The notes beneath the pieces were generated by a model that was not told the DNA's origin, searched no databases, and saw only the letters and a list, made by a program, of their open reading frames with translations. Shown here in pieces: positions 2,232-49,792 of a stretch of 64,000 nt of DNA. The DNA lies in the IMG/VR virus record IMGVR_UViG_3300048998_000202; one strand, 5' to 3'. Position 1 is the stretch's first letter, and every line of letters begins with the position of its first letter. This DNA is from a virus (taxonomy: Duplodnaviria; Caudoviricetes). The translations under genes and the position numbers were made by a program.

Positions 2232-2776
2232 TGCTTCCACTCCTTGTCCAGCACCGCCCGGTCGTTGCCGTGGTGGTCGTAGATCGACTTGGCCACCGTG
2301 ATGATGGCCTTCTCATACGTGTCGCCGCCGGTATCCCGCAGGTAGTCGTGCAGGCTGACGTTGTGCTCGGGCTTGATCGAGCGGGGGAAGACCTCCACCC
2401 AGAACTCCAGTTTGGTGTTCTTGGTGTCGTCCTCCGAGATGCGCGCCGTCTTCGGATTGACCTTGACCGGCTTGACTTCGACACAACTGTCCAAGATCCC
2501 CCGGTCATCCGTCAGGGATCTCTCGTGGAGTTCTCTGTGGCATCGGTAGAAGATCGGGTGCTCGTTGAGCCAGCGCCAGGCGCAGTAAAAGTCGGTGAGA
2601 TCCTCCTCATAGGCCAGGACCAGACGGCGCCAGCGATCCTCCCGGTTGGACTGGAGCGTCCGGTACAGGTTCTCCCCCGTCAAGACGCCCTCCATCCCCT
2701 CGGGCACATGGGCGTCACCCTCACAGGGGATCTCCACCCAGGCAATGGGCTTCTTCGGGCTGGGCGGTTCACCCAT
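2228..2776 (-). CDS. hypothetical protein
   Basis: ORF with GGAG RBS, phage-like codon use. Confidence 0.75.
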   Translation of the reverse strand: MGEPPSPKKPIAWVEIPCEGDAHVPEGMEGVLTGENLYRTLQSNREDRWRRLVLAYEEDLTDFYCAWRWLNEHPIFYRCHRELHERSLTDDRGILDSCVEVKPVKVNPKTARISEDDTKNTKLEFWVEVFPRSIKPEHNVSLHDYLRDTGGDTYEKAIITVAKSIYDHHGNDRAVLDKEWKQ

Positions 2777-3098
2777 GGTCCTGCTCCTTCATCTCATCGG
2801 CTGAGGTCCAGCCGTTGGGCATCGCGGTGAAACTGCCCTCGATGTATCGGGCGAGACTGCGAATCTTGTCCGGCGTGCATCCTGGGTCGGAGTACCGGCG
2901 GGAATCCTTCAGCTCCCTGCGGCGGCCGGAGGCCGAGCCGGTGGTGAGGGCCTCTACCGCGATGCGGGCCATGGACTGGAGGTACTCGTCGTCCATGGGC
3001 GCGCCGAGGTACCGCTGGTGGTGATGGAGCCGCATAGCCCGTAAGACCAGGGTCTCCAGGTCGGTCAGTCTCTTCGGTCGGGACCGTCCTTCGGGCAT
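2769..3098 (-). CDS. hypothetical protein
   Basis: ORF preceded by CCCGCCAGAGATCC leader motif and GGAG. Confidence 0.65.
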   Translation of the reverse strand: MPEGRSRPKRLTDLETLVLRAMRLHHHQRYLGAPMDDEYLQSMARIAVEALTTGSASGRRRELKDSRRYSDPGCTPDKIRSLARYIEGSFTAMPNGWTSADEMKEQDHG

Positions 3099-3313
3099 AT
3101 CGGGGGCTCCAATGCTATGGATCTCTGGCGGGAGATGATCTCAATGGTGGCGCAGAACGCGTACCCGCACTCCGGGCACGGGATCGCACCCTCGTCGTAA
3201 TCCTGGGGATCACCGACTGGGGTGTGCACTCGGGAGACCTCGTCCAGTGCCGTCCACAGTGCGTCCAACTGCTCGTCGTTGATGGTGCTGGCCGTCGGAC
3301 GCTTTTCGGGCAT
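3065..3313 (-). CDS. small hypothetical protein with CxxC
   Basis: TASTINDEQLDAL N-terminus and CPECG; abuts upstream stop. Confidence 0.65.
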   Translation of the reverse strand: MPEKRPTASTINDEQLDALWTALDEVSRVHTPVGDPQDYDEGAIPCPECGYAFCATIEIISRQRSIALEPPICPKDGPDRRD

Positions 3314-4018: not shown

Positions 4019-4389
4019 ATGCCCTCCTGGGCGGTCTTGGCGGCCTCTTCGGCAGCGCGGGCTTCCTGGCGGGCGATCATGCGGATCAGGCGCTTCTGCC
4101 AGTGTTTGGCCTTGCTCTTGGCCAATCGGTCGGCCAGCGGCAGGGCTATCTCCAGCGGCATCCTGCTGGCCTTCAGGAACTTGTCCGTACGGCTGGAATT
4201 GCTGCGCTCATAGGCCCAGCGACGGCCCTTGGGCTGGTAGCAGTACCCCATGTCCGAGATGGCCCAGGAATCCTGCCCGAGCCGTCCCCTGGACACCACC
4301 CGGATGTCCCGGTACTCGTGCTCAGTGTCGATCCACGGGAAGGAGTACTCGGTCACATTGGCCTGGTACTTCTCGGTGGTCTCACTCAC
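4015..4389 (-). CDS. hypothetical protein
   Basis: likely GTG start 4389 by GTGA overlap; WAYERSNSSRTDKF motif. Confidence 0.7.
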   Translation of the reverse strand: MSETTEKYQANVTEYSFPWIDTEHEYRDIRVVSRGRLGQDSWAISDMGYCYQPKGRRWAYERSNSSRTDKFLKASRMPLEIALPLADRLAKSKAKHWQKRLIRMIARQEARAAEEAAKTAQEGM

Positions 4390-5321
4390 GGGATCCGCAG
4401 GCCCTTCTCGATACGCTCGACGTCCTGATTCATCAGGTCGAGCAGAGAGATCTCGTGGCCGAAACGCCAGGGCCGCAGGGTCTTGGGGTCGATCGGCTTG
4501 TTCCACGTCTGGGCCTTCAGTCCCTTGACCGACAGGGACCACTGCTTCTCGAAGGACTGGTAGTCCCAATCCTCCGAGCGGCTCGCGCGTTCCTTCTGCT
4601 GAGCTTCGGTCAGCTCATCCCAGCGCCGAGGAACACCGTCGGGCCACGGCGGCATCCAAGATCCGATGGTGCTGTTCGGGAAGGAGTCACTGCCGGAGAA
4701 GGACATCACCACGGGCCCCTGGTTCTCCTCACGGAGCCGTGCGGCCAGTTCGACCCAGCCCTGGGAGACGAAGACTTCCTGAGCCGCTTCCGGGACGACT
4801 TGGCCGCTCATCCGGGCGAGGTCGTGCAGGGGGTTCCTGTTCCGGAAGTAGCCCTTGCGGAACAGTCCTTCCTCCAGTCCCTCGTCGATCAGATCGGCGA
4901 ACCACCTGCGGTGAAAGCCCATGAAGTAGCCGTAGTGCTCACAGGTGCAATGGATCTTCACACCGAGTCGCAGGGGATCGGATCCGGCGGCCAGCACGGT
5001 GTTCCAGATCAGCGAGGACATCTGGATCTCCTGGCCCTTCCAGGCGAAGACGGCCTGACCGGTACGGAAGCTCATGGCCGTCACGCCGTACGCCAGGGCT
5101 TCATCCCAGCCCTTGGTGCCCGAAGGAATGCCCGCCAAGGGCCCCTCGGGATTGACGAACGGCCCGAGACGATCCCCCAGATTGGAGGCGATGATCCCCG
5201 GCATCACGCCGATCAGTCCCTTGGCGAAGTCCTCGGCGAGGATCCCGAAGTGGGCCCGCTCCGATCCGGAGACCTGGAGGGTGTACCCGTCAGGAGGGAA
5301 GTGGAACTGGATCGAGCTCAT
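4386..5321 (-). CDS. hypothetical protein
   Basis: 311-aa ORF, GAGGAG RBS with leader motif. Confidence 0.8.
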   Translation of the reverse strand: MSSIQFHFPPDGYTLQVSGSERAHFGILAEDFAKGLIGVMPGIIASNLGDRLGPFVNPEGPLAGIPSGTKGWDEALAYGVTAMSFRTGQAVFAWKGQEIQMSSLIWNTVLAAGSDPLRLGVKIHCTCEHYGYFMGFHRRWFADLIDEGLEEGLFRKGYFRNRNPLHDLARMSGQVVPEAAQEVFVSQGWVELAARLREENQGPVVMSFSGSDSFPNSTIGSWMPPWPDGVPRRWDELTEAQQKERASRSEDWDYQSFEKQWSLSVKGLKAQTWNKPIDPKTLRPWRFGHEISLLDLMNQDVERIEKGLRIP

Positions 5322-5391
5322 CGGACGAGGACTCCTCGGGATCTCTGGCGGGACGGGCGATGCTATCAGTGGTGTAGTACAGCGTCGACAA

Positions 5392-7008: not shown

Positions 7009-7329
7009 TCACACCGAGGCCAGGAGGGGACGGGCGATGTCCTGGAGGACGGAGATGATCTCGTCGGCGTACAAGGCGAACTCCACATCACTGGGGAAAT
7101 CCGAGGGGTTGGAGTAGACGTGCTGCGCCGTCTCCATCATGACCAGGAGCAGCGACGCAGCGTGTTCCGGCTTGAGCAGGTCCGCGTGCTCTCCACGGGA
7201 GACACGCTCAGCCCAGTCCCAGACGAGCAGGGACAGCGGGGGTTGCACGAGCACGTGGACCGCGATCTCCTGGACCGCGTGAGCGATCGGGTCGAGCAGT
7301 CGGTCCGGCAATCCGTACGCAGGGCACAT
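7009..7329 (-). CDS. hypothetical protein
   Basis: GGAGG RBS, downstream of promoter 7367-7396. Confidence 0.7.
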   Translation of the reverse strand: MCPAYGLPDRLLDPIAHAVQEIAVHVLVQPPLSLLVWDWAERVSRGEHADLLKPEHAASLLLVMMETAQHVYSNPSDFPSDVEFALYADEIISVLQDIARPLLASV

Positions 7330-7366
7330 GGGCACCTCCGGGAGAGTCTCTGGCGGGACTCTCCCG

Positions 7367-8661: not shown

Positions 8662-8701
8662 GATGGCCTCCAGAGGAGTCGGTGTTGCCCTGACAGAGTC
8701 A

Positions 8702-8731
8702 AGACTACTCCAACAATCCTTGGAGGGTCAA
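8702..8731 (-). promoter_or_regulatory. promoter/operator copy
   Basis: TTGACC-CTCCAAGGATTGTTGGAG-TAGTCT. Confidence 0.8.
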
Positions 8732-8943: not shown

Positions 8944-9234
8944 TCAGACGTGCTTCGGGTGGCGGAACAGGACGAGCTGCCCCCGGCCCTCCGCCAGGGC
9001 CATCAGGTCCAGTTTGTTGCGGCACGGCTGGCAGTCCACATAGGTGAACTCGATCTGACGCGAGCACCACTGGTACTCGTGCCCGGCCGGGATGGCCGCA
9101 TCGCACAGGGGCTGGAGGTCGATCTCTCGGCCCACGAGGACCGGTTTGATCGCGTGGACCTCCGGGAAGGTCGCGTTGGGCTTGTCCGGGTGAGCGAAGT
9201 AACCGGTCTGCAAGTCGGCGAGGTTGAGGGACAT
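8944..9234 (-). CDS. hypothetical protein
   Basis: ATG 9234 with GGAGG and leader motif. Confidence 0.7.
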   Translation of the reverse strand: MSLNLADLQTGYFAHPDKPNATFPEVHAIKPVLVGREIDLQPLCDAAIPAGHEYQWCSRQIEFTYVDCQPCRNKLDLMALAEGRGQLVLFRHPKHV

Positions 9235-9276
9235 GACGGCCTCCGGGCGGGATCTCTGGCGGATGTTCAAACGTCC

Positions 9277-10219: not shown

Positions 10220-10256
10220 GGTGGCCTCCTGCGGAGTCGTCGTGCTGACAGGGTCA

Positions 10257-10286
10257 ACACTACTCCAGGAATCCTTGGAGTGTCAA
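10257..10286 (-). promoter_or_regulatory. promoter/operator copy (best consensus)
   Basis: TTGACA-CTCCAAGGATTCCTGGAG-TAGTGT. Confidence 0.85.
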
Positions 10287-12365: not shown

Positions 12366-12402
12366 GGTGGCCTCCCAGGGAGTCGTGGTCTTGACAAGGT
12401 CA

Positions 12403-12432
12403 ACGCTACTACAAGCATTCCTAGAGCGTCAA
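12403..12432 (-). promoter_or_regulatory. promoter/operator copy
   Basis: TTGACG-CTCTAGGAATGCTTGTAG-TAGCGT. Confidence 0.75.
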
Positions 12433-14608: not shown

Positions 14609-15316
14609 TCAGTACGGCCAGCCGTTGTTGTCCGCACACGTCGGCCCATAACCCAGGTCCTTGGAGTGGTCCTTGGTCAGGTGCCTGCCACAGCTACAGC
14701 AGCACTTGTAGAGGTCGCCAAACTGCTTGGCGTCCTCCGCCGTCATCCGGCAGTCCTGAGTCAGGCGCCCGAAGGGCCGCTGGCCCGCGTAGAAAAACTT
14801 GTGGGTCTCGGGGTTGAACTGCTTGGCGTAGCGGCGGTCGGTCTCTTTGGCGGTGACGACCAGGAAGATGTCGTCGCCGACCTTGTAGGGGCCTTCCTCG
14901 GGAATGTAGGAGGGCTCCGGACGGCTCCGGGCCGAGGGGGTCTGGTCGGCCAGCGAGATCATCGCCTCCAGCAGATCACCGGCATTGTGTCGCGTGATCT
15001 CGTCGCCGTTGCAGACCTGATCCACCAGCAGGCGATGCTGCGGGGAGAGCAACTCCAGACTGATCTTCCGGCGCAGATTCCTGATGTAGCGAGCCTGGGC
15101 CGGGGAGATCGGAAGGACCGCGATCGGAGCAGGGCCCGGAGTCGACCTGGGCGCCGGGACTTTCGCGGCGGGTATGGCAGTCCTCTGCATGCCCAGGCGG
15201 TCGGCATACTCGTGGGCCACCTGGCAGCAGTGCCGGTCGTGTTCGGTAGCGGTGGAGTGGGCCTGGACGGTCCGCTCCATCATCCGGCGGGTGAAGCTCT
15301 GCAACTGCTGCGCCAT
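14609..15316 (-). CDS. DUF6011-like zinc-finger protein
   Basis: C-terminal CCSCGRHLT..S...GYGPTC; ATG 15316 after GGAGG. Confidence 0.75.
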   Translation of the reverse strand: MAQQLQSFTRRMMERTVQAHSTATEHDRHCCQVAHEYADRLGMQRTAIPAAKVPAPRSTPGPAPIAVLPISPAQARYIRNLRRKISLELLSPQHRLLVDQVCNGDEITRHNAGDLLEAMISLADQTPSARSRPEPSYIPEEGPYKVGDDIFLVVTAKETDRRYAKQFNPETHKFFYAGQRPFGRLTQDCRMTAEDAKQFGDLYKCCCSCGRHLTKDHSKDLGYGPTCADNNGWPY

Positions 15317-15354
15317 GATGGCCTCCAGTGGAGTCGGTTGTGGTGACATGGGAG

Positions 15355-15384: not shown

Positions 15385-15412
15385 CCCTCTCTGGCAGGAT
15401 TTTAAAAAGTGC

Positions 15413-16370: not shown

Positions 16371-17411
16371 TCAGCTCAGGAAGCTTCGGACCGTCTCATC
16401 GATCTTGCCAACGGCCTGAACCGGAGTCGAACCTTCCAGGATCTTCTGGATCTCGACCAGGAGCACCATGAACTGCTGAGTCAGCATCTCGACCTCAGCA
16501 CGGTTCTTGTCGGCGCTCTCGTCTTGAGCGTCCTTCACGCGTTTGTCGGCGGAGTCCTGGGCTTCAAGGAACCGCTTGTCGGCGGCGCTACGGTCCTGCT
16601 CGGACTGCTTGGCCGCCTTCTTCAGCAAGTCTTCGGTCTCGGCCAGCTTGGTCCGCAGGGCCTCCACCTCGGCCTCCTTGGCGACCAGCTCCGTAGAGCC
16701 CCCTCCGCCGAGGGCGTCGCTCACAGCGACCCGCAGCATGTCCATGGCGGTGTCAACGTCAGCGGGCAGTTGCACGCGGTTGGTCTCCTGGAAGGGGTTG
16801 TTTCCCGGGTACATCTGGTGACGCATCCCCCGGTGGGCGGCCAGCCCCTGAGGGGCCTTGAAGGTGTTGCGCTCTTCGTGCTGCCAGCACTCGATGCAGT
16901 AGTACATTCCGTCACCAAGGAGGAACTTGGTGTTGTCCCGGGTGCCGAGCAGCGTCGGGTCGAAGGGGGGAATGTAGACCGGGATAGCAACAGTCGTCTT
17001 GGGCATGGTGGGGTTCTCCTCGGGCTTCGTCATCCCCTGCTGGATCGCAGCGGCGGCCTTCTGGCGGGCGGCCTCTATCTGCCGCTGCTTGGCCTGCTGC
17101 TCCTTCTCGTACGCCTTGCGCTGAGAGTTGAGCCGATCAGCCTCTTGCTGGCTCTGCTCGGCGACCTCTTGATGGAGGCGATCGGTCTGGTCCGGCGTAC
17201 GGGCAGGGCCCTGACCGACGAGGTTGTACCGGCGGCAGTTGCTCCGGAAAACCTTCATCGACTCATCGTTCGGGCCGTGTCCGATGGTGAGATTCACACC
17301 GTCAGGAGGGGTGATGACCACCTTTTTGTTGCGATTGGAGACCTTCCAACCGGCGGCCCCGGCCAGTTCCATGGCCGTGGTCACCTCTTCGGGGATCGAT
17401 TTATTGCCCAT
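16371..17411 (-). CDS. HicA-like N-domain + C2H2 zinc finger + coiled-coil protein
   Basis: AGWKVS..KKVVITPPDG..LTIGHGP; CIEC...F...QGLAAHRGMRH; long heptad region. Confidence 0.65.
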   Translation of the reverse strand: MGNKSIPEEVTTAMELAGAAGWKVSNRNKKVVITPPDGVNLTIGHGPNDESMKVFRSNCRRYNLVGQGPARTPDQTDRLHQEVAEQSQQEADRLNSQRKAYEKEQQAKQRQIEAARQKAAAAIQQGMTKPEENPTMPKTTVAIPVYIPPFDPTLLGTRDNTKFLLGDGMYYCIECWQHEERNTFKAPQGLAAHRGMRHQMYPGNNPFQETNRVQLPADVDTAMDMLRVAVSDALGGGGSTELVAKEAEVEALRTKLAETEDLLKKAAKQSEQDRSAADKRFLEAQDSADKRVKDAQDESADKNRAEVEMLTQQFMVLLVEIQKILEGSTPVQAVGKIDETVRSFLS

Positions 17412-17451
17412 CCGTGAACTCCTCGGATCAGGTTTCTCTCTGGCATGAGAA

Positions 17452-17490: not shown

Positions 17491-20400
17491 TCAACCGAGC
17501 GTCACGGCCTCCCAGTGTCCTCCGACACAGACGTGGATCTCCGTGATGTCCCAGCTCGCAGGCTCGACCTTGGGCAGGAACCGTACGTGATGGTCTCGGT
17601 AGTCCAGCGTGATGTGCGGGGTCCACCCGTGGTCGTTGCGAACGTCGTAGCCGTGGGTCTCCAGGACATCCACCAGAGACTGGCGGAACGCCCCTCCGTG
17701 GGGGATGTCGACGGCAGCCCACAGCACATGCTGGCCAGGGTTCACGAATGTCCCGGCACCGCCTATACGAGCCGTCAGAGCCTTCTGAGTCCTGGCCCAG
17801 CCCTCGACCAGACCGTGCAGATCCCGGCGCTGCTTGGCGGTGTACTCCTTGGCGCTGCCCATGTAGGCCAGCGTGACGTGCATGGCCTCCACCGGCTCGC
17901 CGTCTTCCACGGCGATGTCCTGGCGGATCTTCTTCGGCGGGACGATGGCGATCATCATGCCGCCCGTGTCGGCGCCCTCGGCGGCCGTCTTGAAGTCCAA
18001 GCCGGAGAGCTTGGAGTCGAAGAGAGTGGTCAACGTGGTCCTCCTGGCGGTCGTTGGGACCCAAGACGTGGGGCCCGACGGGGACTCGTTCTTCCACTGG
18101 ACGAGCTGGGCCCACGGCTTGTCGGGGTGCTGGTCCAGGTACTTCTCGATGATGTTGGACAGATCAAACAGACCGTGACCACCGTCACCGAAAGCATCGG
18201 AGCGATGGGTGTGCAACTCCTCCCAGAGGTTCGCCGCCATACGGTGGCGCTCCTCGGCCGGGAGCTGGCCGATGGCCTGGATCTCGTGCAGAAGCGCCTC
18301 AGCATAGCCCCAGTACGACTCGGGCAGGTGGGTGGCGTTCCAGTCCTTCGGGACCTGGAGGGGGTGTACGGCCCAGTCGTCGCTGGTGACGTTGTACGCG
18401 GCATAGGGGCGCAGGTTCTTGATGTCCCAAGCACGGGGGTTTACGAAGAATGTTCTGTCGAAAGGCCCCACGCTCCGGCCGTCGGCCAAGGTGAAGAAGT
18501 AGTCCTTCACGTTCGCCATGGCCCACAGTTCGTCGGTGAGGGCAGTGGCGATCTCGGCGTCCTCCATCTCCTCGCATTGTGGGTCGTGGTCCCGGAACTC
18601 CTCGAAGTCGATGCCGATCAGGATGTCGAAGTCGCCGTTGCCCTGACCGTTCTGGTCCAACCACTGGGCGGCCTGGGACCCGGCGAAATACACCCGAGTC
18701 CACTTCTGCCAATCCCCGTACTTCCCCAGGACACCCCCCACGCGGTCCAGGATGTCCTGGCGGACCTCCGGGCGCAGGTGGTCGCCGTTGAAGAGTCGCT
18801 GGTCGTTCTGAGCGCTGTTGGGCCCCCAGTACTTTCCCTCCGGGAGCCAGGTGTGGGTCTGGGTGTACACCGGCCGATCTCCGACACTTCCTGCATGAGG
18901 ATCATCCTCGCCGTGAGAACCGTCCAGGTGAGCCCAGCCGTCCTGTGGGGTCATCTCCACCTCATGACCCCAGGAGTCCTTGCCCTGCGTGCCGTCCGGA
19001 ACAGGACCACCATCCGCGCTGGCCGTACGGCGAGCGCCCATCTCGGTGCGCTTGCGGTACCACTCCTTGCCCGAGGGGTGATCCATGGCCTGGTTGTAAT
19101 GATCGGGGTTGTTGTAGTCGCCCAGAGGAGCCGCCATACCCAGTTCGTGGGCGATAGCGAGACGATGGTGGCCGTCCATCACGTTCTTGCCGTCTAGAAG
19201 GACTGGAGCCTGAATTCCATGCTCGGCGATATGACTCTTCAGCGCGTCATAGTAAGCAGGCGCACTCTGGCGTAGCCGTTTCGCCACCTGGTCGAGGTTC
19301 AATCCCGGGTGATCAGGAAAGTGCAGGGATCCATATTCCTCGGGCTGCATGGTCCGACTGGGCCCAGGGTCATCTGCGACACTGGCCCGCTTGGTGACCG
19401 TGCTGACCTTGTACCGGCTCGGGTCGTCCTTCATCAGCCGCAGGTGCTTGCGGTAGTTACGGGTGAAAGTGCTTGCTGCGTCCTCGCCGAACATGTGGTG
19501 CAGCGCGTCGTGGTAGCCCTGCCGGAAACCGTCGCCGTGCACGACGTCGTCCGGCTGCCCGGCCTGGCTCATGTCCCGGCCGTTGCGGTGGATGTCCAGC
19601 AGGTGCCCGGCCTCGTGCGCCAGAGTGCCGTAGTCGTAGCGCCTCTTGTGCAGAGACACCCCGACGTCGCCCGTGTCAGCGTCGTAGGCCACCGAGGAAG
19701 AAGAGCGTGCCGGGTCCTCGTGGCGCTCCACGAAGGCGCTGGCGGCCCCGGGGTGCCCGTGGGCCTCCAGGACGTCCTGGAGGCGCTGGGACGCCTTCTG
19801 CTCGCTGTAGGGCAGCGGGTTGCCGACCTCCGGGTGCTGCTCGCGCAGGACCTTCTGGGCCATGGCGGTGGCGGCCTGGTGCGGCCGGGCGGCCGGATCC
19901 AGGACAGCACGCTTGCGCATGGGCCGCAGGAAGTCGTACCGACTGTAGGGCTCGGCCTTCTCGGCAGAGACGTCCCGGTGCGTACCGGACTCGCTGTCGT
20001 GGCCCTGCTTCCAGGAAACGCCGTGGACCATCAGCTTGGCGTCAGGACGTACCGGCAGGCGCCAGGAAACCTCAGGGTCGTACTTCTCCCCGTCCCGGAA
20101 GTTCTCGGTCCAGTGGTGCTTCTCCAGCGGGGTTCCGGCGTGCAGCACGACGTGGGTGGACGGGCAGCCGCCGTAGCCGGTCTCCGAATCGCCGCAGTCG
20201 TGCCCGCGCTCGTGATCGTGGTACGCCTTCCAGCCGCCCTGGTCTCCGTACTCGGCGGCCTTCTCCTTGCTCGGGCTCCAGTAGTTGCCCAGACCCCCGG
20301 TGGTTCCCTTGGCCTCCTCGGAGGTGATCTCCGGCCGCTCCTTACGGACGTGGGCCAGGAGCATGTGGGCGCGGGCTCCGGCGGGCTGGCTCTCGTCGTG

Positions 20401-21603
20401 GACGAACTTGTGGATGTGCTCGGGCAGCACGACGGACAGACCCCGGTGGATCAGGCCCGGGTCGTCAGGGTCCTCGGCGGCGTGCTTGCGCACCGAGATC
20501 TCCTTGTCATCGTCGTCGTACTCCGGGTCCTCCAGCGCTCCGGGGTCGGGGTGGTGTTTCACCCAGGCGTCCAGCATGTGCGGCGGCACCAGACGCGGGT
20601 GCATGCCCTTCTCCAGGTCCTCGTCGGCCATGTGGGCGTCGCTGCGCTCGTAGTCCTCGTCGCTGTCGTAGTCCAGCTCGGGGTAGTCGTGCATGGACTT
20701 GCGGTAGGTGTGCGGCTCGGAGCGGTATTGCACCGCGTTCTGAGCCTTGCGCAGCGTCTCGGGATTGTGCTCCCACATCGGCTTGTGCGCCGGGACCGGC
20801 GGCTGAGCCTTCTCGCGCTCGTTCATCTCCGGGTTGGCGCCGCTGTAGCGGGCCTGCCCGCCCATCCTCATGAGCTGGTCGGTCTGCTGGAACCTGTCCC
20901 GGAACGCCTCGCGGGCCACATAGCTGTTCGGGTGATGGTCCACCAGGGCGTGCTCGAAGTGGTCCCTGAAGTTGTCACCGTGCGGCTCCTCGTCGTCCTG
21001 GGTGCCCTTCTCCCGGTCGATGTGGTGGGCCAGCTCGTGCAGGAGGGTGCCGTGGTTCATGCCGCCCTTGCCGAGCACGATCCGAGGCGTGCCGTGCTCA
21101 GGGTGGATCTGGGCGAAGGAGTAGTCACGTTCCGGAGTGTGTTGAACGACGACCGGCCGTACCCCGGCCTTCTTGGTGACCTTGTCGGCGATTTGCTGGG
21201 CGTGCTCCACCGAGCTGACCGGGTGCTCAGGAAGATGCAGGGCCATCCGGTCCTCGGCTCCGTACTGACGTGCCTGTGTCCACGTCATCGGAGTCTTGCG
21301 GTCCTCGAACCGCATCTCGGGCTCGTGGTACTCTCCCGCCGTCCGGCGCCCTGTGGGGTGCGGATAGGCGCACATGATGCCCTCGGGCCCGAAGGCTCCG
21401 AAGCTGTGGCTGGGACCACCGTCGTTGTACCGGCCATCGCAAGGGGCATCGTCGGCGGTGTCAGCCGGTACGGTCCCTGCGGCGTCGCACAGGTAGCACT
21501 CGAAGCCGCTCCCGTGCTCCCCATGGCCACCGCAGCACGGGCAGGTCTTCTCCGGGCCGCTGGCGCCCTTCCCGAACAAGGTGGTCAGAGTCCTGAGCTT
21601 CAC
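17491..21603 (-). CDS. polyvalent multidomain protein: Zn finger, two HExxH zincin-like domains, ART-like domain, ParB-like domain, Pol-beta nucleotidyltransferase, 2H phosphoesterase
   Basis: GGAGG-GTG start 21603; CPCCGG..CYLC; HELAH; IHRG..GLGNYWS; HEAGH; PVLL...DGHHRL; FAGS..DFDIL; HVT/HIT. Confidence 0.8.
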   Translation of the reverse strand: MKLRTLTTLFGKGASGPEKTCPCCGGHGEHGSGFECYLCDAAGTVPADTADDAPCDGRYNDGGPSHSFGAFGPEGIMCAYPHPTGRRTAGEYHEPEMRFEDRKTPMTWTQARQYGAEDRMALHLPEHPVSSVEHAQQIADKVTKKAGVRPVVVQHTPERDYSFAQIHPEHGTPRIVLGKGGMNHGTLLHELAHHIDREKGTQDDEEPHGDNFRDHFEHALVDHHPNSYVAREAFRDRFQQTDQLMRMGGQARYSGANPEMNEREKAQPPVPAHKPMWEHNPETLRKAQNAVQYRSEPHTYRKSMHDYPELDYDSDEDYERSDAHMADEDLEKGMHPRLVPPHMLDAWVKHHPDPGALEDPEYDDDDKEISVRKHAAEDPDDPGLIHRGLSVVLPEHIHKFVHDESQPAGARAHMLLAHVRKERPEITSEEAKGTTGGLGNYWSPSKEKAAEYGDQGGWKAYHDHERGHDCGDSETGYGGCPSTHVVLHAGTPLEKHHWTENFRDGEKYDPEVSWRLPVRPDAKLMVHGVSWKQGHDSESGTHRDVSAEKAEPYSRYDFLRPMRKRAVLDPAARPHQAATAMAQKVLREQHPEVGNPLPYSEQKASQRLQDVLEAHGHPGAASAFVERHEDPARSSSSVAYDADTGDVGVSLHKRRYDYGTLAHEAGHLLDIHRNGRDMSQAGQPDDVVHGDGFRQGYHDALHHMFGEDAASTFTRNYRKHLRLMKDDPSRYKVSTVTKRASVADDPGPSRTMQPEEYGSLHFPDHPGLNLDQVAKRLRQSAPAYYDALKSHIAEHGIQAPVLLDGKNVMDGHHRLAIAHELGMAAPLGDYNNPDHYNQAMDHPSGKEWYRKRTEMGARRTASADGGPVPDGTQGKDSWGHEVEMTPQDGWAHLDGSHGEDDPHAGSVGDRPVYTQTHTWLPEGKYWGPNSAQNDQRLFNGDHLRPEVRQDILDRVGGVLGKYGDWQKWTRVYFAGSQAAQWLDQNGQGNGDFDILIGIDFEEFRDHDPQCEEMEDAEIATALTDELWAMANVKDYFFTLADGRSVGPFDRTFFVNPRAWDIKNLRPYAAYNVTSDDWAVHPLQVPKDWNATHLPESYWGYAEALLHEIQAIGQLPAEERHRMAANLWEELHTHRSDAFGDGGHGLFDLSNIIEKYLDQHPDKPWAQLVQWKNESPSGPTSWVPTTARRTTLTTLFDSKLSGLDFKTAAEGADTGGMMIAIVPPKKIRQDIAVEDGEPVEAMHVTLAYMGSAKEYTAKQRRDLHGLVEGWARTQKALTARIGGAGTFVNPGQHVLWAAVDIPHGGAFRQSLVDVLETHGYDVRNDHGWTPHITLDYRDHHVRFLPKVEPASWDITEIHVCVGGHWEAVTLG

Positions 21604-21612
21604 GTGCACCTC

Positions 21613-21645
21613 CACCCCTTCAGGGGGTCGCCGGGGGCCGGGACA
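21613..21645 (-). promoter_or_regulatory. putative late (phage-sigma) promoter
   Basis: TGTC-N19-TGAAGGGGTG, same spacing as the copy at ~59472-59504. Confidence 0.45.
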
Positions 21646-21648
21646 GCA

Positions 21649-21745
21649 GAAGGCCCCGCACCACAAGGGTGAGGGGCCTTCGAGCAAGGGGCCGGGGAAA
21701 CCGGCCGATCCCGCCAGAGATCCGAACTGGAGGCCCGAGGGCACA
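21649..21745 (-). ncRNA. candidate multi-target antisense small RNA
   Basis: intergenic; contains CCUCC + GGAUCUCUGGCGGGAUC complementary to a leader motif of many genes; ends in hairpin 21649-21681. Confidence 0.55.
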
Positions 21746-21807
21746 GATCTACCTTTGCTCCGGCCCCATGGAAGCACGAATCCCGAGGTCAACGCAAGGT
21801 TGTCTCA

Positions 21808-24660
21808 TCAGTAACGGGGGCGGCGTGTCCGTGATCCACCTCTCATTGAATCGGGTCTCATCCCTCGGGACTTCCCGAATCCTCCGAGCTGCTGGAAGAT
21901 CTGCTGCGGCGTTCTGGGGCTGTTGCTCATATCGTCGTTCCGGCTCATTCCGGGGAATGGCTCCATACCGCCCAGCAGCGCCCCCTGAGGGCGCATCGAG
22001 CCCAGTTCAGAGCGCATGGAGACGATCTGGTCTCCGATCAGCGCCATGACGCACTCCATCATCGCGTCGGCGACGTCCTTGGTCTGGACGGGCCCGCTGT
22101 CGGGGTGGTCCACCGCCCCGCTCTTCTCCTGGAGGAAGCGCAGCTCCAGCTCGGCCTGCTCGTAGTACGGCGCATGGACCCAGCCCATATAGACGGCGGT
22201 CTTGAATATCTCGGCCCGCTGCCAGTTGTGCTGTCTAGTCGCGGTCTTCTCATAGACCTGGGTGGTCTTGGGCAGCGTCGCCATTCGGGACCTGCGGGCC
22301 AGTCGCTGGATGACCTGGGCCGAGTTGAACTGGTCGAAAGTCATTTCTGTTGGCATGAACGGGGCGAGCATATTGCTCCAGATCCACTCCTCGACTTCGT
22401 CGTAATCGACGATGTGATCGGTGAAGTCCCCCGGAATGAAGTGATGGATCTTGTCGAAGACGACATGGAGCCGGTTGTCCGGGCCGGGCTCGGCGTGGGC
22501 CATGGCCAAGCCGAAGTTCGCGTTGGACTTGCTGGGGTCACCATGGGCCTTGTAGTCCAGGTCCAGACGGCCGCTCTCCTGCATGACCAGCAGGGGGCCG
22601 CCGAAGTGCGGTATCCGGCCCTCCCAGGGCTGGAAGATCTGCCGGACCTTCTCCTCTTTCAGGTAGGCGTCCAGTGCCACGGCGAAGTGGGACCGGCGCT
22701 CCACCTTGAAGGTCTCGGGGTTGGACTGCTCCAGCCGGGCCATCTGGTCGTCGTACGCCTGGATGGCACCGCGCAGGGGCTGGAAGTACAGCGGCGGCTG
22801 GTCCGCGTACTCCCCCAGGTCTCCGGTGTACCCCTCGGGGAAGATCGGGATCTCGTGGGCGATCTCCCAGTCCTTGTAGATGTCCCAGCTCGTGAGCTGG
22901 ACCATCAGCATCTCGGCGTAGACCGGCTCGCCCTCATCGTCTTCCAGGAGCGAGTTGCAGTAGTTGACGTAGAACTGCCCGAGCATCTGCCACGGCGAGC
23001 TGGGCTCGATGATGAAGGCGTCGGCCCCGAACTGGTCCAGGGAGGGCGTGGCGGCGCTGTTGTGCGAGACCAGTCCTTCAGCGATGAACGTGCCCGTGGA
23101 CGTCTCGATGTCCACCAGGCGCTGAGTCGGAAGCTCCTCGATCGAGACCACGCGCTTGAAGCTGCGATCTCCACGTACTGCTCGTCCCTGCCAGAGGTTC
23201 TGGACATTCTGGTTCAGCCGCAGCGGGCGGTACTGACCGAGGAACCGGAAGCAGTCCCGGAGTCCGACGATCTGGAACGACTGGCAGGTGCCCTTGCGCA
23301 CGTCGTGCCGTACGTCGAACTGCGCGTCCTCTAGGAGGTTCAAGACGCGATCTCGGACGAGACCCGGATTCTGGGCGAATCCGATCTTCATCGAGCCGCG
23401 CTCATCGAATCGGACGTGTCCCTCCCCGTCGTAGACCCCGGACAGATAACCGCCCTCGCGGGTGTTGTCCTCCTCCCAGGGGTCCACCAGGTGCTGGATG
23501 TGGTCTCCCACCCGAAGCTGAGACCAGTTCCCCCCGGCGCCATTGCGCAAGACGGACGGCTTGGTGATGGTCGCCCACCTGGTGTTGCCGCCCTTGAGGA
23601 CACGTGACCTCAACCACCGGTGATTCCCGGAACACACAACGGTCGAGCTGTCCTCCAGCGTGATGCGATAGGCGATCCCTTCCGTGTCCCACTTGTGCAC
23701 AACGGTGGCTTCGCGCAACTTGCGCGGGGTTCCGGATGCCCCAGAAGGTTCCTCGTCCATGGCCACCAGCGCATCGCCAGCCACCAAATCATCGATCTTG
23801 ACCCACGTCAGATCGGCCTTGAGAACCCGCGTCTCCGGATCCAGGCAGTAGACCTCCTCCGCAGCCCGGTTGGCCCCGGAGGCCACGACGTGCGCCATCT
23901 CGTCGTACGCCTGGCAGAACGAGGTGGGACCGCGTCCGGCCATGAGCGTGCTCTCCTTCGGCACGATCTCGAAGGTGGCCATGTTGATGTCGTCGGGGTT
24001 CATGCCCTGCTGGGCCCGCTTGCGCATGCGGACGAAGTCGTGCGGGGCGTAGACACTGAGTTTCTCGGCCTGGAGAGGCGCCCGGATGTACGGGGCGAAG
24101 CAGGCTGAGCCGACGATATAGTTGACCGCGTCCTGCCAAACGGTGGCCTTGGCCTGGTCCCGCTTCCCTGCGAAGACCATGGCCACGAGCTTCTTATCGC
24201 GGTCCACCCCGTAGTACCGCTGGGGGTCTCCCTTGGCCATGTAGTTCCACAGCACGTAGGCCATGGACAGCCCGGATATGTGCCCCTTACCGGCGCGGCG
24301 GCCCATCACGAGCAAGGTCTCGCGGAACCACTTCCGGCCCTCCTTGCGGAGCTTGGCCATGCGACGCCGGACACCCGGCACCACACCGTTGTTCCCCGTG
24401 GTCCGGAAGGACTCCTCCCACTCGTCGATGACCATGTGGTCGTAGTCGGTGAGCAGGTCCAGACGCAGGAAGATGATCTTCAGCAACGTGGCCTGGCGCG
24501 GGTAGATGTTCGCGCGGTCCAGATAGTCCTCGTCGATCACGAATGTGATCGGGTCGGGTATCTGGAGGCCGGTGAAGAGCTGAAAGATCTGGCCTGGTCC
24601 CATGCCGATGGGTATGCCGGAGGACCGGGCCTTCGTCTTGACCGGGGAGGGGGCTGGCAC
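21808..24660 (-). CDS. terminase large subunit (intein-containing)
   Basis: Walker A MGRRAGKG, Walker B QAYDEMAH, RNase H-like C-domain (HGDPS, TFDQFNS, KDVAD). Confidence 0.9.
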   Translation of the reverse strand: MPAPSPVKTKARSSGIPIGMGPGQIFQLFTGLQIPDPITFVIDEDYLDRANIYPRQATLLKIIFLRLDLLTDYDHMVIDEWEESFRTTGNNGVVPGVRRRMAKLRKEGRKWFRETLLVMGRRAGKGHISGLSMAYVLWNYMAKGDPQRYYGVDRDKKLVAMVFAGKRDQAKATVWQDAVNYIVGSACFAPYIRAPLQAEKLSVYAPHDFVRMRKRAQQGMNPDDINMATFEIVPKESTLMAGRGPTSFCQAYDEMAHVVASGANRAAEEVYCLDPETRVLKADLTWVKIDDLVAGDALVAMDEEPSGASGTPRKLREATVVHKWDTEGIAYRITLEDSSTVVCSGNHRWLRSRVLKGGNTRWATITKPSVLRNGAGGNWSQLRVGDHIQHLVDPWEEDNTREGGYLSGVYDGEGHVRFDERGSMKIGFAQNPGLVRDRVLNLLEDAQFDVRHDVRKGTCQSFQIVGLRDCFRFLGQYRPLRLNQNVQNLWQGRAVRGDRSFKRVVSIEELPTQRLVDIETSTGTFIAEGLVSHNSAATPSLDQFGADAFIIEPSSPWQMLGQFYVNYCNSLLEDDEGEPVYAEMLMVQLTSWDIYKDWEIAHEIPIFPEGYTGDLGEYADQPPLYFQPLRGAIQAYDDQMARLEQSNPETFKVERRSHFAVALDAYLKEEKVRQIFQPWEGRIPHFGGPLLVMQESGRLDLDYKAHGDPSKSNANFGLAMAHAEPGPDNRLHVVFDKIHHFIPGDFTDHIVDYDEVEEWIWSNMLAPFMPTEMTFDQFNSAQVIQRLARRSRMATLPKTTQVYEKTATRQHNWQRAEIFKTAVYMGWVHAPYYEQAELELRFLQEKSGAVDHPDSGPVQTKDVADAMMECVMALIGDQIVSMRSELGSMRPQGALLGGMEPFPGMSRNDDMSNSPRTPQQIFQQLGGFGKSRGMRPDSMRGGSRTRRPRY
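23059..23847 (-). mobile_element. intein (263 aa) with a single LAGLIDADG motif
   Basis: Y|CLDPET start, SGNH block B, YLSGVYDGEG, VSHN|S end. Confidence 0.9.
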
Positions 24661-24664
24661 GGGG

Positions 24665-24847
24665 TCAGTCCCCGTGTCCCCAGGCGCAGTGCACGAGGCC
24701 CTTCTCACGGTCTACGACGGTCCAGCCGTGCATCTGGGCGATGTCCACGGTCTGGAGTGCTCCATCGGCCTCCTGTGGCCTCCAGAAGATCGACTTGCAG
24801 CCGTCGTGTGAACACTTCACGTGCTCGGTGACGTTCTCTTCGGGCAT
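24665..24847 (-). CDS. small Cys/His protein
   Basis: KCSHDGC...GW...HC; TGATG coupling. Confidence 0.6.
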   Translation of the reverse strand: MPEENVTEHVKCSHDGCKSIFWRPQEADGALQTVDIAQMHGWTVVDREKGLVHCAWGHGD

Positions 24848-26774: not shown

Positions 26775-26813
26775 GGGTTCTCCTCTGATCGGTGGCGGGA
26801 AGATTTTAAAATC

Positions 26814-36300: not shown

Positions 36301-37312
36301 CGAACTCCTTGCCCATGGTGACCAGGGCCCGGTTGACCTTTTCCTGCTCCGCCAGCGCGTTGGGCTGGATCTCCAGGTAGAACCGGTCGCCGAAGATGTC
36401 GAGCATCTTGCCGAGGTTGGCCCTGGCGCCCTCTTCGTCGTCCTTCAGGATCGGGACGCTCAGCGGGCCCCGCAGGCAGCCGGAGGCGGCCATGATGCCG
36501 TTGGAGTGCCGTCGCAGGGTGTCCCAGTCCATCCGGGGCTTGCCGTAGAAGCCGTCGCGAAAGGACTCCGTGGACATGGCCCAGAGGTTGTGCAGGCCCT
36601 CTTCATCCATGGCCCAGAGGATCAGGTGGTAGTAGTCGTTGAGGACCTTCTGGGCGGCCGTCAACGGCTTGCCCTTTTTGGTCGTCTCCCCCACCGGGGC
36701 TTCGATGTCGGACCCCCGCAGGCGCCGGTCGTTGACGAAGTACGCCTCGATACCGAAGACCGGCTTGATCCCGGCTTTGTCGCACTCGGTCTGGAGCTGG
36801 GGGTGCCCAGAGCAACGGCCGTGGTCGGTCAGGGCAAGTCCCTGCTGGCCGTCCTTGACGGCCTCGGCGACCAGTTCGGAGATCGTGGACAAGCCGTCCA
36901 GCGGGGAGTACTCGGCATGGGTGTGGCCGTGCACGAAGCCGGTCTGCACCGTGGTCTGCACCGTGATCAGCTTGCCAGGGGTGGCCTGATAGACCTCGGT
37001 GTAGGACGGGACGTGGTCGAAAAGCGCCCAAGTCCTTTCCGGCACCACGTAGTTGGGGCTTCGCTCCTCGCGCTGCTCAGCGAAGCGCTCGGAGGTGATG
37101 GCCCGGATTTTAAAATCTCCCGGGACGATGATGCCCGCTGCCCCGGCCGCCGTCGCGCGGGCCCACAGGGGCGCGTAGATCTCACGGTGGTGCTGTACCA
37201 GCAGCCAACGAATACCGTCTTCGTCGTCTTCGATCAAGCATGGAACAGGGTGTGTCCGCCCGTTCAACACGATCGTGACTCCGTCGCTGGCGTACGACTC
37301 GATAGTGCGCAT
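33344..37312 (-). CDS. dnaE: DNA polymerase III alpha subunit
   Basis: PHP HTHAEYSPLDG/TDHG, GPGRGSGAGSL, PDFDVDF, HAAGVVI, KFDIL, YGFNKAHA, OB fold. Confidence 0.95.
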   Translation of the reverse strand: MRTIESYASDGVTIVLNGRTHPVPCLIEDDEDGIRWLLVQHHREIYAPLWARATAAGAAGIIVPGDFKIRAITSERFAEQREERSPNYVVPERTWALFDHVPSYTEVYQATPGKLITVQTTVQTGFVHGHTHAEYSPLDGLSTISELVAEAVKDGQQGLALTDHGRCSGHPQLQTECDKAGIKPVFGIEAYFVNDRRLRGSDIEAPVGETTKKGKPLTAAQKVLNDYYHLILWAMDEEGLHNLWAMSTESFRDGFYGKPRMDWDTLRRHSNGIMAASGCLRGPLSVPILKDDEEGARANLGKMLDIFGDRFYLEIQPNALAEQEKVNRALVTMGKEFGVPLMATVDSHYPTKDDHAAHQAWIAVQINKDDDQEDEGDLFSVNLDLYMQSEADVRRGLAYLGADAADEAVKSTLDLISRTDARIGGKPTAPVYSKKGGADKDVERLLDLCIENWDKISSKPDQDSYMARFEREFALLKTKGFTGYFLMVADYCRFAKDGGILVGPGRGSGAGSLVAYLSDITEVDPIEARLPFERFMTEGRTSLPDFDVDFPASKKDVMIGYLVEKYGADYVIQIGTHLRLKSKGIVQNLGRAMMGELTKPEQDALQNGPAEGGFSFGTESWSHAAQERLTARKAEIHKDLAAVSKIIEGAEAGTAGLGMAWDDLWVQFGEDLNPYRQKYPELFAMADKLVGRLKSYGKHAAGVVISTDRPLTGWLPLMGGEGGQMVSQFDMVALEAMGLVKFDILTIRTLDTVQMAVDLIRDNRQVDIEIYRWDEEYTDPTVWEEISHGNTLGMFQIETKAGTRLALRMKPQSMSELADMNTIVRPGPMRSGLTETYLQRRAGLETVTYADPRMETILGDSQGAPIYQDHVLELLMQLAGYTSDEADEVRKILGKKKIEKIGPAGQEFVHRAREWGGMDREVAQHLWDQLAEFAKYGFNKAHAYSYSMISYWTAWLKIHYPIEFFVAALSTIDKDRIPEFIKEVRRSGYTILPPDINASGKGFKAEPLAVRYGLDAIKGIGETAVDYLIAGQMYADFRQFDEYVTQKGTKANSGVQMLLARIGALDSLEPRRAGLVALLEGRKSGEDTRCVFKDDSVTFTPKEIVFRPRTEGESEEQWKAYEESFDKQYAAERAKLPPDSCTFDWTTEQPPVNPRTGKLLPLKALPKKCTRACRQHTAPAPVDHLAASEPYADEDVRAIEHELLGVFLSSTPFDKIPAEDRKEYYADAERLVAGGPGFYTVAAILMGVRKTKTRASQEDMAFLSFDTEVSTVEAVAFPKTWTDIQTGLHAGQLCLAVLEKQDGDRGLVVREYLPVITRRIHG

Positions 37313-43896: not shown

Positions 43897-44060
43897 TGAA
43901 ACCCCCTCAGATTTTAAAATCCCGCCCCATCCTGATGTCGGCTCAGGAGGGGCGGGCAGCGCATCGTCTGCCTCTCCGTCTGGCGGACCGGGAGGGGGTC
44001 GAGACTCGTGGATCGTATCAAGCGACCGGCTTCGGCAACATGCCCTGACCACCTGAAACG

Positions 44061-46493: not shown

Positions 46494-47231
46494 CTACTTC
46501 TTCTTGATGGCGCGCAGGTACAGCGCGCAGCCGTTCCGCCCCCGCTTGACGATCCTCGCCAACATGCTGGCGTCACCGGTCCGCAGGACGTACGCGCGGA
46601 TCTTCTCCGCGTCCGGGACCCGCCGGACCACCGTGACGGCCTTGTAGGTCTTCTCGTCGATCTCCCCGGCCTCGTACGCCCGGTCGATGGCGCCCAGGTC
46701 CCGGGACAACCGGCCCGAGGAGAACTGGTTGGAGAACTGCTTGGTGCTGCCCGGGATCACCGTGACCTGGGGCTCACCCTTGGCCGCCAGGATGTAGTGG
46801 CCCTTGGCGTCCCGCTCGGTCGCGGTGGCCACGAGGTTGCCGTTGAGGAAGACGTCCTTGGCGAACGCCAGACCCTTCTCCTCGGCGTCCACGTCCTGGT
46901 GGGTCCGGACGATCTCCTTGACCTGCTCCTCGCGCTTGCCGATGAGCTTGACGACCTCCTGGAGCGCCTCGTACTCGGCACCGATCGCGGCGACCTCGTC
47001 CTCGGTCAGGGCTCGCCGATCGACAACGATGGTCTTGTTGAACGTGGCCGACAGGGTCCGCAGCGCGTCGCGGATCTCCTTGGTCGCGGTCAGCGCCTCG
47101 GGCACCTCGGGGAATTCCTCGGGCGCGTTGTCCTGGGGTATGGCACCCAGGAGCTTCTCGGCGAGGTCCTCGATCGTGGCGTCCTTCAGCACGATGCGCT
47201 GGGTACGGGTGACGGGGACGAGCTGGGTCAC
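46494..47231 (-). CDS. hypothetical protein (strong codon bias)
   Basis: GGAGG-GTG start, leader motif and operator upstream. Confidence 0.8.
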   Translation of the reverse strand: MTQLVPVTRTQRIVLKDATIEDLAEKLLGAIPQDNAPEEFPEVPEALTATKEIRDALRTLSATFNKTIVVDRRALTEDEVAAIGAEYEALQEVVKLIGKREEQVKEIVRTHQDVDAEEKGLAFAKDVFLNGNLVATATERDAKGHYILAAKGEPQVTVIPGSTKQFSNQFSSGRLSRDLGAIDRAYEAGEIDEKTYKAVTVVRRVPDAEKIRAYVLRTGDASMLARIVKRGRNGCALYLRAIKKK

Positions 47232-47270
47232 AGTGACCTCCGGGTCGAGACGATCTCTGGCGTTACCGCC

Positions 47271-49728: not shown

Positions 49729-49762
49729 TTGTGCCCTCCTCGGATCTTCTCTGGCAGACGCC

Positions 49763-49792
49763 AGACTACACCAACAATCCTTGGAGTGGGAA
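49763..49792 (-). promoter_or_regulatory. promoter/operator copy
   Basis: TTCCCA-CTCCAAGGATTGTTGGTG-TAGTCT. Confidence 0.7.

Follow-up and report, generated by a model that had tools for sequence, protein, structure and literature searches.

A conserved structured element downstream of terL carries the complement of a leader tag in a group of large phages: a candidate trans-acting antisense RNA

We analyzed a 64,000-nt stretch of the large uncultured actinophage of IMG/VR virus record IMGVR_UViG_3300048998_000202 (Duplodnaviria; Caudoviricetes), called the window below (WIN when compared with relatives), and in it the gap downstream of the large terminase gene, terL, together with a short sequence, the leader tag, that recurs in front of genes elsewhere in the window. 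The G+C content is 64.6%, and the minus strand holds nearly all genes. The terL gene (21808–24708) codes for a 966-aa large terminase with 33% identity to terminases of Cluster C mycobacteriophages; the next gene after it (17491–21606) codes for a 1371-aa multi-domain polyvalent protein with a C-terminal 2H/LigT-like domain. These two names, as well as that of the DinG-like helicase, had been given in a preliminary description made from the sequence alone and were confirmed; the names ‘terD’ and ‘HicA-like’ had no Pfam or PHROG support. A megablast search against 50,697 GenBank phage records found no DNA-level relatives of the locus; with no DNA match and a TerL only 33% identical to its Cluster C counterparts, there is no cultured relative at hand. 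The relatives are known only as IMG/VR contigs (labelled G001–G012); several of them are complete, 124–160 kb long, with terminal repeats.

Read along the terL strand, the gap contains a conserved element with a shared layout, seen when each homologue was folded alone: a closing helix P1, a C-rich hairpin H1, a hairpin H2 that carries the reverse complement of the leader tag (the anti-tag), and a GC-rich hairpin; one more hairpin, H3, is optional. With a terL alignment as the seed, a scan yielded 52 loci; most of them have the element, down to ∼50% terL identity; the structured RNA occupies the same terL-downstream gap in at least 10 related ∼100–160 kb IMG/VR phages. In a metagenome pattern scan nearly all of the matches listed were due to chance; one was a true match, identical to the relative L028. 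Promoter-like boxes, the core and the GC hairpin are kept in WIN, G001, G002, L028, G003, G004 and G005. The conserved core reads (U)CU(C)UGGCG(G/A)(G/A), and the tail UGCUGUC follows the GC hairpin in all of these seven but G005.

The minus-strand reading GGCCUCC-AGUUC-GGAUCUCUGGCGGGAUCGG, followed by a small hairpin and by the GC hairpin at 21649–21681, was found as previously described, and there is indeed no start codon after the plus-strand GGAGG (no ATG, GTG or TTG within range). The H1 region carries indels in relatives, therefore it is not coding; a small plus-strand open reading frame was considered and rejected, as it would lack a start codon and the region has these indels.

Compensatory changes were seen in several helices. 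In comparison with G001, P1 shows one such pair (GAGCAA/UUGCUC to GACCAA/UUGGUC) and H3, which is present in WIN and G001 only, shows two (GGCUAG/CUAGCC in G001). The stem of H2 is changed to GUUCUC/GGGAAC in G003 and to UUUC/GAAA in G005, and G004 has a different outer stem; the stem of the GC hairpin has compensatory changes in G003 and G004. In a separate clade B (12 sequences with RNAs of 170–217 nt) RNAalifold predicted a 9-bp P1 and internal helices, with double changes in 13 of 25 pairs overall and in five of the nine pairs of the P1-equivalent helix.

A search of the window with Rfam 15 at gathering thresholds produced no hits; at the locus itself, with E-values up to 10, only chance hits of 13–19 bits appeared (the families included T-box, 6C, 6S and tmRNA), and for the loci of five relatives there was no match at the RNA.

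As for a promoter, the candidate −35 box of the window is TTGCGT or TTGACC and the candidate −10 box is CATGGG or TTCCAT. The aligned boxes are better in relatives (TATAGT in G001, CATGGT in L028, CATGCT in G002, TTGCAC-18-CATACT in G004). In L324, an AT-rich relative, the scan called a promoter, TTGTCT-16-TATAAT, in front of a 116-nt RNA with the same fold (z = −2.71) and the tail GUUUUG.

The end of the element recurs as part of a module: a GC hairpin, YTGCTGTC, ∼25 nt, GAAGGGGTGGAGG(TG) and a start codon, present before late genes in two to four copies per genome. The module is located at 21604–21648 of the window, at ∼14412, 91377 and 94123 in G001, at ∼52864, 111472, 133704 and 152153 in G002, and at ∼26269, 102257, 107774 and 110745 in G003; further copies were seen in L289–L309 and in additional IMG/VR contigs. 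Possible roles are those of a late promoter, of a processing signal, or of a terminator combined with a strong ribosome-binding-site cassette.

The exact tag core, GCCAGAGA, is present in 11 copies in the window versus 3.73 ± 1.74 in shuffled sequences (none of the 100 shuffles reached 11). Nine of the 11 copies are on the minus strand. Eight of these nine (at 49748, 47254, 17437, 9253, 7347, 5342, 3122 and 1206) are situated 11–38 nt, mostly 17–25 nt, 5′ of start codons opening minus-strand reading frames, each of at least 96 aa; the claim that the motif precedes many minus-strand genes was thus borne out. The remaining minus-strand copy, 15388–15395, was absent from the earlier list; its conservation extends to G001 and, allowing one mismatch, to G002. 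We corrected that list in two more respects. The copy at ∼1192–1213, placed inside a coding sequence, more likely belongs to a leader, since downstream of it there is an in-frame ATG (1168) with a Shine-Dalgarno, GAGG. The ‘weaker’ copies (∼14563, ∼26787 and ∼29828) need three mismatches; with 52 such hits in the window versus 46 expected they are indistinguishable from chance.

An unbiased analysis of 7-mers enriched upstream of starts had CCAGAGA, GCCAGAG and CGCCAGA among the top words in WIN, G001 and G004. The complementarity between the gap RNA and the window leaders is perfect over 15 nt (3122 and 5342), 13 nt (9253), 12 nt (7347) and 11 nt (47254), and a core match of at least 8 nt exists at eight leaders. 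A local hairpin, UUUCUC/GAGAAA, contains the tag at 17437, and tag and hairpin alike are kept in the orthologous leaders of G001, G002 and G003. The gap had been said to hold the sole copy in the opposite orientation (21713–21720); this is true for intergenic DNA, while a second exact plus-strand copy, 57885–57892, was found within a coding sequence.

The orientation of the tag is not random. The ratio of sense to antisense intergenic copies of the exact sequence CGCCAGAGA is 4:1 in WIN, 13:1 in G001, 9:1 in G002, 3:1 in G003 and 5:1 in G004, the sense copies being leader-proximal; in each of the five the single antisense copy is the terL-downstream locus. Furthermore, the tag keeps its sense orientation whichever DNA strand the gene is on: it precedes a 572-aa gene on the opposite strand in G002 and three genes on each strand in G012.

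The sequences in front of the tag are diverse. In WIN and G001–G003 the tag follows early promoters composed of TTGACA, the palindrome CCAAGGATTCTTGG and TAGNNT, and its start is usually 15–16 nt past the palindrome, close to the predicted +1; in G004 it follows different promoters, GTATTGTTCTAC or TTGACA-17-TAGACT. About one-third of the copies come after terminator hairpins or tRNA genes, with no promoter. We rejected a role of the tag as a part of a sigma-70 promoter, since it is found downstream of four unrelated contexts (different promoters, terminators and tRNAs). A sigma-54-like reading of CTGGCG was rejected by eye (the GG-to-GC spacing is 8, not 10); actinobacteria are not known to have sigma-54. 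An extended Shine-Dalgarno or a pairing with 16S nt 31–37 was also considered and seems unlikely: the spacing varies, and a match of 7 nt somewhere in the rRNAs would, on a rough estimate, occur by chance.

Other repeats were observed around these leaders. The palindrome CCAAGGATTCTTGG, the spacer between the −35 box TTGACA and the −10 box TAGNNT of ∼11 early promoters, has 25 strand-hits in the window versus 4.3 expected and resembles an operator at which a phage or host regulator would bind (sites at 662, 7375, 8710, 10265, 11835, 13307, 15363, 16306, 17461, 47276 and 49771). Another, larger class of early leaders combines a TTGAC-N3-GTCA(R) palindrome over the −10/+1 region with GACUCC-N3-GGAGG, which would fold into a short hairpin and mask the Shine-Dalgarno; it has four exact matches, at 619–654, 8667–8702, 10225–10257 and 12371–12403 of the minus strand, versus 0 expected. 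An AT-rich palindrome, GATTTTAAAATC, occurs nine times in the window versus 0.18 expected in a genome of 65% G+C: exactly at 26802–26813, 37106–37117 and 43910–43921, and with one or two mismatches at 699, 6896, 15398, 49797, 53798 and 63465. The sequence TTTTAAAA has 19 copies in G001. Some copies of the AT-rich palindrome overlap start codons (GGATTTTAAAATG), and some adjoin the leader tag. Finally, in G012 (L406, L408 and L417) a ∼55-nt repeat, cttgTGCCAGAGAT(A/T)TTTATATGTCAAACTGGAG(T/A)CAGCCAGAGATCA, contains two tag copies and is present at least three times.

The tag and the anti-tag change jointly between lineages. In WIN, G001–G004 and G012 the tag CCCGCCAGAGA (CCCGCCA-GAGA) goes with the anti-tag UCUCUGGCGGG (UCUC-UGGCGGG). 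In G006 the tag CCGCCAGAC (CCGCCA-GAC), found in four leaders immediately 3′ of −10 boxes or of a tRNA, goes with GUCUGGCGG (GUC-UGGCGG), present in two copies, one after terL and one at a second locus; a second class in the same genome combines CCGCCAAGA (CCGCCA-AGA) in two leaders with UCUUGGCGG (UCU-UGGCGG) in one hairpin. The latter combination is also that of G007 (six leaders, three hairpin copies) and G010 (eight sense copies, ∼4 of them leader-like). In G008 two leaders with CCGCCAGGA (CCGCCA-GGA) have the counterpart UCCUGGCGG (UCC-UGGCGGG). Thus, four variant pairs exist by lineage (GAGA/UCUC, GAC/GUC, AGA/UCU and GGA/UCC), and the orthologous second loci, 145898 in G006 and 40370 in G007, differ exactly as the tags of these genomes do. 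Paralogues are matched by class as well: in G001 and G003 leaders of the T class (UGCCAGAGA) have their own perfect partner, GGUGAUCUCUGGCAGGACACC, a run of 23 nt identical in the two genomes amid diverged sequence, situated just before a terminator and beginning, in G003, 8 nt past a stop codon. Reverse copies are always borne by hairpins, near a GC terminator-like hairpin, and forward copies are leader-proximal (the window copy at 15388 does not fit). The co-variation of the RNA with the leaders, which had been named as a check of the regulon idea, was therefore present.

In an unbiased profile the matches of at least 8 nt to a phage's own leaders pile up on H2. RNAduplex energies of the RNA with all leaders were uninformative: given the high G+C content of the genome, values of −20 kcal/mol or lower were obtained for all leaders and also with shuffled RNAs, which is why counts of contiguous matches were used instead. 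G005 was set aside as a test of co-variation, since the contig is 55% complete and has no clear leader motif, with two suggestive leaders only (GUUCGCCAGAA/C).

What stands of the RNA regulon proposed in the preliminary description is a non-coding element on the terL-sense strand, conserved and structured, whose most conserved segment is the reverse complement of the shared tag; from this we infer a discrete RNA species, its pairing in vivo and a repressive effect. Our preferred reading is that the RNA of the window gap acts in trans as an antisense RNA on the tagged leaders, with a probability of roughly 0.55. A terL-sense RNA of ∼120 nt would originate in the gap, either from its own weak promoter or as the 3′ end of the terL transcript. 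H2 would present UCUCUGGCGGGA for pairing with the tag, (U)CC(C/U)GCCAGAGA, at or near the 5′ end of phage mRNAs: seven or eight in the window, that of the DinG-like helicase included, and ∼15–20 in complete relatives. Pairing would probably start where the UGGC loop of H2 meets the accessible 5′-proximal GCCA of the leader; the helix would then extend into the H2 stem to reach 11–15 bp, and the C-rich or CCUCC loop may assist at the Shine-Dalgarno in some phages. With host-type promoters on the tagged genes and the RNA encoded in the late region, the simplest logic is a late shut-off of early messages; the most likely outcome would be that early messages are repressed or destabilized in a coordinated way when the RNA becomes abundant through late transcription. 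Activation, processing or a reverse direction of control are possible in place of shut-off.

Several observations weigh against such a mechanism. A consensus scan of the window locus called neither a promoter nor a terminator; the hairpin described earlier as terminator-like is strong and co-varying, but its tail, UCUGCUGUCC, has no U-tract. On the sense strand the RNA body of the window has no unusual stability (z = −1.49), and a permutation test of P1 in the window's own clade was not significant (combined p = 0.55). The distance of the tag from the start (11–38 nt, mostly 17–25 nt) corresponds to the edge of the ribosome footprint and is borderline for direct blocking. The anti-Shine-Dalgarno proposed earlier fared unevenly: CCUCC is present in five sequences (WIN, G001, G002, L028 and G004) and forms a second peak of complementarity to their own leaders, but it is absent in G003, its spacing to the anti-tag varies from 5 to 23 nt among relatives, and it is often half-buried in a stem. 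Among leader variants, with orthologues collapsed, transitions compatible with G.U pairing outnumber incompatible ones by ∼15:1, a ratio confounded by base composition.

The strand of the RNA is not identified by folding either: on the antisense strand the stability of the RNA body slightly exceeds that of shuffles (z = −2.43). One could think of a functional plus-strand transcript, a leader-like decoy (tag and GGAGG with no reading frame) titrating a factor that binds tagged leaders, or an antisense RNA that reaches the 3′ end of terL, and in WIN, G001, G002 and L028 the copy does resemble a true leader, with the tag followed by GGAGG. We consider this very unlikely: no promoter is evident on that strand, GGAGG is absent in G003 and at the second loci, and the conserved U.G pair of H2 becomes a C.A mismatch. 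The promoter-like boxes, the promoter called in L324 and the U-containing tail are all along the terL strand; besides, a lone tag would make a poor sponge.

The copy at 15388, located upstream of a promoter, breaks the leader rule, and a role for it at RNA level is hard to see. It is placed at about −45 of a leaderless promoter, as a DNA site could be. The tag may then serve as an operator, asymmetric and specific in orientation (a site like the L5 stoperators or a +1 operator), at which a phage regulator would block or modulate the transcription of tagged units, the terL copy being a reverse site inside an RNA gene. The start of the tag near the predicted +1 of many promoters, where the palindromic TGAC-N3-GTCA box sits in the other leader class, agrees with such an operator; the concerted change of all copies within a genome would be expected as well if the specificity of a DNA-binding protein had shifted, and the L5 stoperators are an actinophage precedent for oriented asymmetric sites. 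Still, about one-third of the tags have no promoter in front, and a DNA site does not need its reverse copies to be in hairpins with compensatory stems, inside a folded RNA and before terminators. Where a genome has two tag classes, each class has its own matching reverse copy; in G009 and G011 the reverse copy persists in the absence of forward sites, and no candidate binding protein was identified. We regard the operator as unlikely.

The complete genomes G009 and G011 also bear on the RNA itself: they keep it with few or no sense tags, which indicates that the RNA is older than the regulon or broader in function. The main job of the RNA may then be elsewhere, as a cis-acting leader or attenuator of the polyvalent gene, or with UGGCGGG binding a protein, a host RNA or an uncharged tRNA ending in …CCCGCCA (the T-box UGGN pairs with tRNA NCCA); the tagged leaders would be secondary partners, competitors, or regulators rather than regulated. 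Several features are in line with this: the order of terL, RNA, GC hairpin, UGCUGUC, strong Shine-Dalgarno and gene is kept family-wide, leaving no space for a separate canonical promoter before the downstream gene; UGGCGGG is the invariant part in all lineages; and the anti-tag lies in a hairpin of 6 bp with a loop of 4 nt, a poor kissing loop rather than an open strand. On the other hand, no T-box or other Rfam family was matched, the second and third anti-tag hairpins are found in unrelated places (such as the one past the stop codon in G003), and the anti-tag varies at its 5′ part in step with the 3′ part of the leaders of the same phage, as expected only if these are real partners. This possibility appears to us rather improbable, less so than the operator.

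The trans-acting antisense RNA, to return to it, has a close formal parallel in the SAS (Start-Associated Sequences) of Cluster K mycobacteriophages, for which a partner, RNA or protein, was considered and the function was left unexplained (Pope et al. 2011, PMC3203893). SAS and the tag alike are short repeats of asymmetric sequence, with 11–19 copies per genome, confined to non-structural genes, just 5′ of starts and almost always in one orientation, with a lone reverse copy. The consensus of SAS, GGGATAGGAGCCC (PMC3203893), is however unrelated in sequence to the phage tag CCCGCCAGAGA; SAS contains the Shine-Dalgarno and is 3–7 bp from the start, whereas the tag is separate from it, 11–38 nt away and 5′-proximal; and the reverse copy of SAS is located at the right genome end, while the anti-tag comes after terL. 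In the literature searched we found no antisense-RNA role for SAS.

In Adephagia (JF704105) the reverse SAS, 58682–58694, lies in a 430-nt unannotated non-coding gap between gp92 and gp93, within a two-hairpin element at 58,560–58,740 (L311:8560-8740) that is also present in L312–L315. On the transcribed strand it reads CCUCCUAUCCC and occupies the apical loop of a ∼16 bp hairpin conserved in five diverged Cluster K members, with several G.U pairs on that strand. Compensatory changes were seen in two of the 18 predicted pairs of this hairpin and in seven of 35 across the two-hairpin structure; the region is conserved, mostly unannotated, in 166 Cluster K records. The Cluster K element may be an anti-SAS RNA. 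The parallel suggests a shared principle and is not a proof of it.

The L5 stoperators, sites of gp71, are said to have been described by Brown et al. 1997 (EMBO J) as asymmetric 13-bp sites oriented with transcription. Like the tag, the stoperators of L5 and Cluster A are numerous, asymmetric, located in short intergenic regions and oriented with transcription, and the tag follows this L5-type orientation rule in WIN, G001–G004 and G012, with its reverse copies in hairpins. They differ in being DNA sites of a lysogenic repressor; the tag is unrelated in sequence and its reverse copies are in conserved RNA hairpins. SAS were contrasted with the L5 stoperators in PMC3203893.

Other small phage RNAs base-pair near the ribosome-binding sites of the phage's own genes. 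Of these, c4 of P1/P7 acts on sites within its own operon. OOP and aQ of lambda and sar of P22 each act against a single overlapping or antisense gene (review PMC12197685). The element described here would differ from these in that one RNA, or two to three paralogous hairpins, would act in trans on 8–20 dispersed genes via a shared tag. As to the mode of pairing, RNA-OUT and RNA-IN of IS10 are a cis-encoded pair with one target and long complementarity. They resemble our proposal, with no sequence relation, in that the loop of a stable hairpin would meet the free 5′ end of an mRNA and the helix would then spread; pairing of this kind could explain the 5′-end location of the tag. The host-encoded 6C/B11 and RsaE RNAs of Gram-positive bacteria and actinobacteria share the C-rich hairpin loops able to meet G-rich Shine-Dalgarno regions, and in the abstract of PMC10470900 B11 is presented as a multi-target regulator; the phage RNA differs in having no Rfam match and in taking its specificity from a separate anti-tag.

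Judged by sequence, the element would represent an undescribed RNA family with a co-varying set of leader tags, in which control by a base-pairing small RNA is turned on the phage's own regulon. More tentatively, one could speculate that ∼100–160 kb actinophages have an RNA ‘address tag’ system with one to three hairpin RNAs recognizing tags at the 5′ ends of early mRNAs, so that a whole temporal gene class would be controlled post-transcriptionally in a single step, SAS, with their lone reverse copy in a hairpin loop, being an independent example; the main hairpin RNA would be encoded after terL, and tag and anti-tag would drift jointly between lineages.

Known temporal control in lytic phages is exerted via proteins: sigma factors, anti-sigma factors, repressors, proteins of the RegA/RegB type and antiterminators. 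A phage RNA that acts in trans and, by means of a portable leader tag, governs a regulon of the phage itself would, if true, be a new regulatory layout, and it would account for the sense-only repeats before genes in some actinophage genomes. It gives a testable hypothesis for the SAS puzzle, open since 2011, in Cluster K phages, which are culturable and used therapeutically (ZoeJ, TM4 relatives). The analysis also adds an uncatalogued structured RNA family present in dozens of IMG/VR contigs. Since the tag/anti-tag pairs are short and orthogonal between lineages, they could serve as synthetic post-transcriptional switches in actinobacteria.

Coordinates of the features discussed are collected in Table 1.

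Table 1. Elements of the terL-downstream gap and copies of the leader tag in the window
Feature	Position	Strand	Description
Candidate small RNA, ∼120 nt	21642–21761	−	From the P1 5′ strand to the UGCUGUC tail
Weak promoter-like stretch	21765–21797	−	Just past the terL stop codon, 21808–21810
P1, 5′ strand, GAGCAAAGG	21752–21760	−	Pairs with 21682–21689
H1, C-rich hairpin	21724–21751	−	Variable; adjoins CCUCC
CCUCC, anti-Shine-Dalgarno-like	21729–21733	−	Next to H1
H2 hairpin, GAUCUC-UGGC-GGGAUC	21707–21722	−	Anti-tag core UCUCUGGCGGGA at 21709–21720
H3 hairpin, GGCCGG-UUUCC-CCGGCC	21690–21706	−	In WIN and G001 only
P1, 3′ strand, CCUUGCUC	21682–21689	−	Directly 5′ of the GC hairpin
GC-rich terminator-like hairpin	21649–21681	−	
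UGCUGUC tail	21642–21648	−	
Palindrome	49771–49784		In the promoter preceding the tag at 49748
Leader tag uGCCAGAGA	49748–49755	−	19 nt before GTG of the DinG-like helicase gene 47713–49728
Leader tag	47254–47261	−	22 nt before GTG of gene 46494–47231
Leader tag uGCCAGAGA	17437–17444	−	25 nt before ATG of gene 16371–17411
Tag copy	15388–15395	−	5′ of the promoter of leaderless gene 14609–15349
Leader tag CCGCCAGAGAUCC	9250–9262	−	18 nt before ATG of gene 8944–9234; after a terminator hairpin
Leader tag	7344–7356	−	17 nt before ATG of gene 7009–7329; in the loop of a 9-bp hairpin, GGGAGAGUC/GACUCUCCC
Leader tag UCCCGCCAGAGAUCC	5339–5353	−	20 nt before ATG of gene 4386–5321; 15-nt perfect complement of the RNA
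Leader tag UCCCGCCAGAGAUCC	3119–3133	−	23 nt before ATG of gene 2769–3098; 15-nt perfect complement of the RNA
Tag copy	1206–1213	−	37 nt before the likely ATG at 1168

Two minor observations concern individual genes. Residues ∼303–550 of TerL have a weak match to an intein domain (22.8 bits, under the Pfam cutoff of 35.8), and the protein has ∼280 residues beyond the ∼680-aa matched TerL regions of relatives, which is consistent with an intein insert.

The 572-aa gene of G002 that has the tag in its leader is located at ∼107,850–109,570 of the oriented contig, opposite to terL, and has a GC3 of 0.95. By eye, the N-terminus of its product is Ro60/TROVE-like, and a tRNA-like sequence adjoins the gene; this hints at a possible phage Ro/Y-RNA pair.

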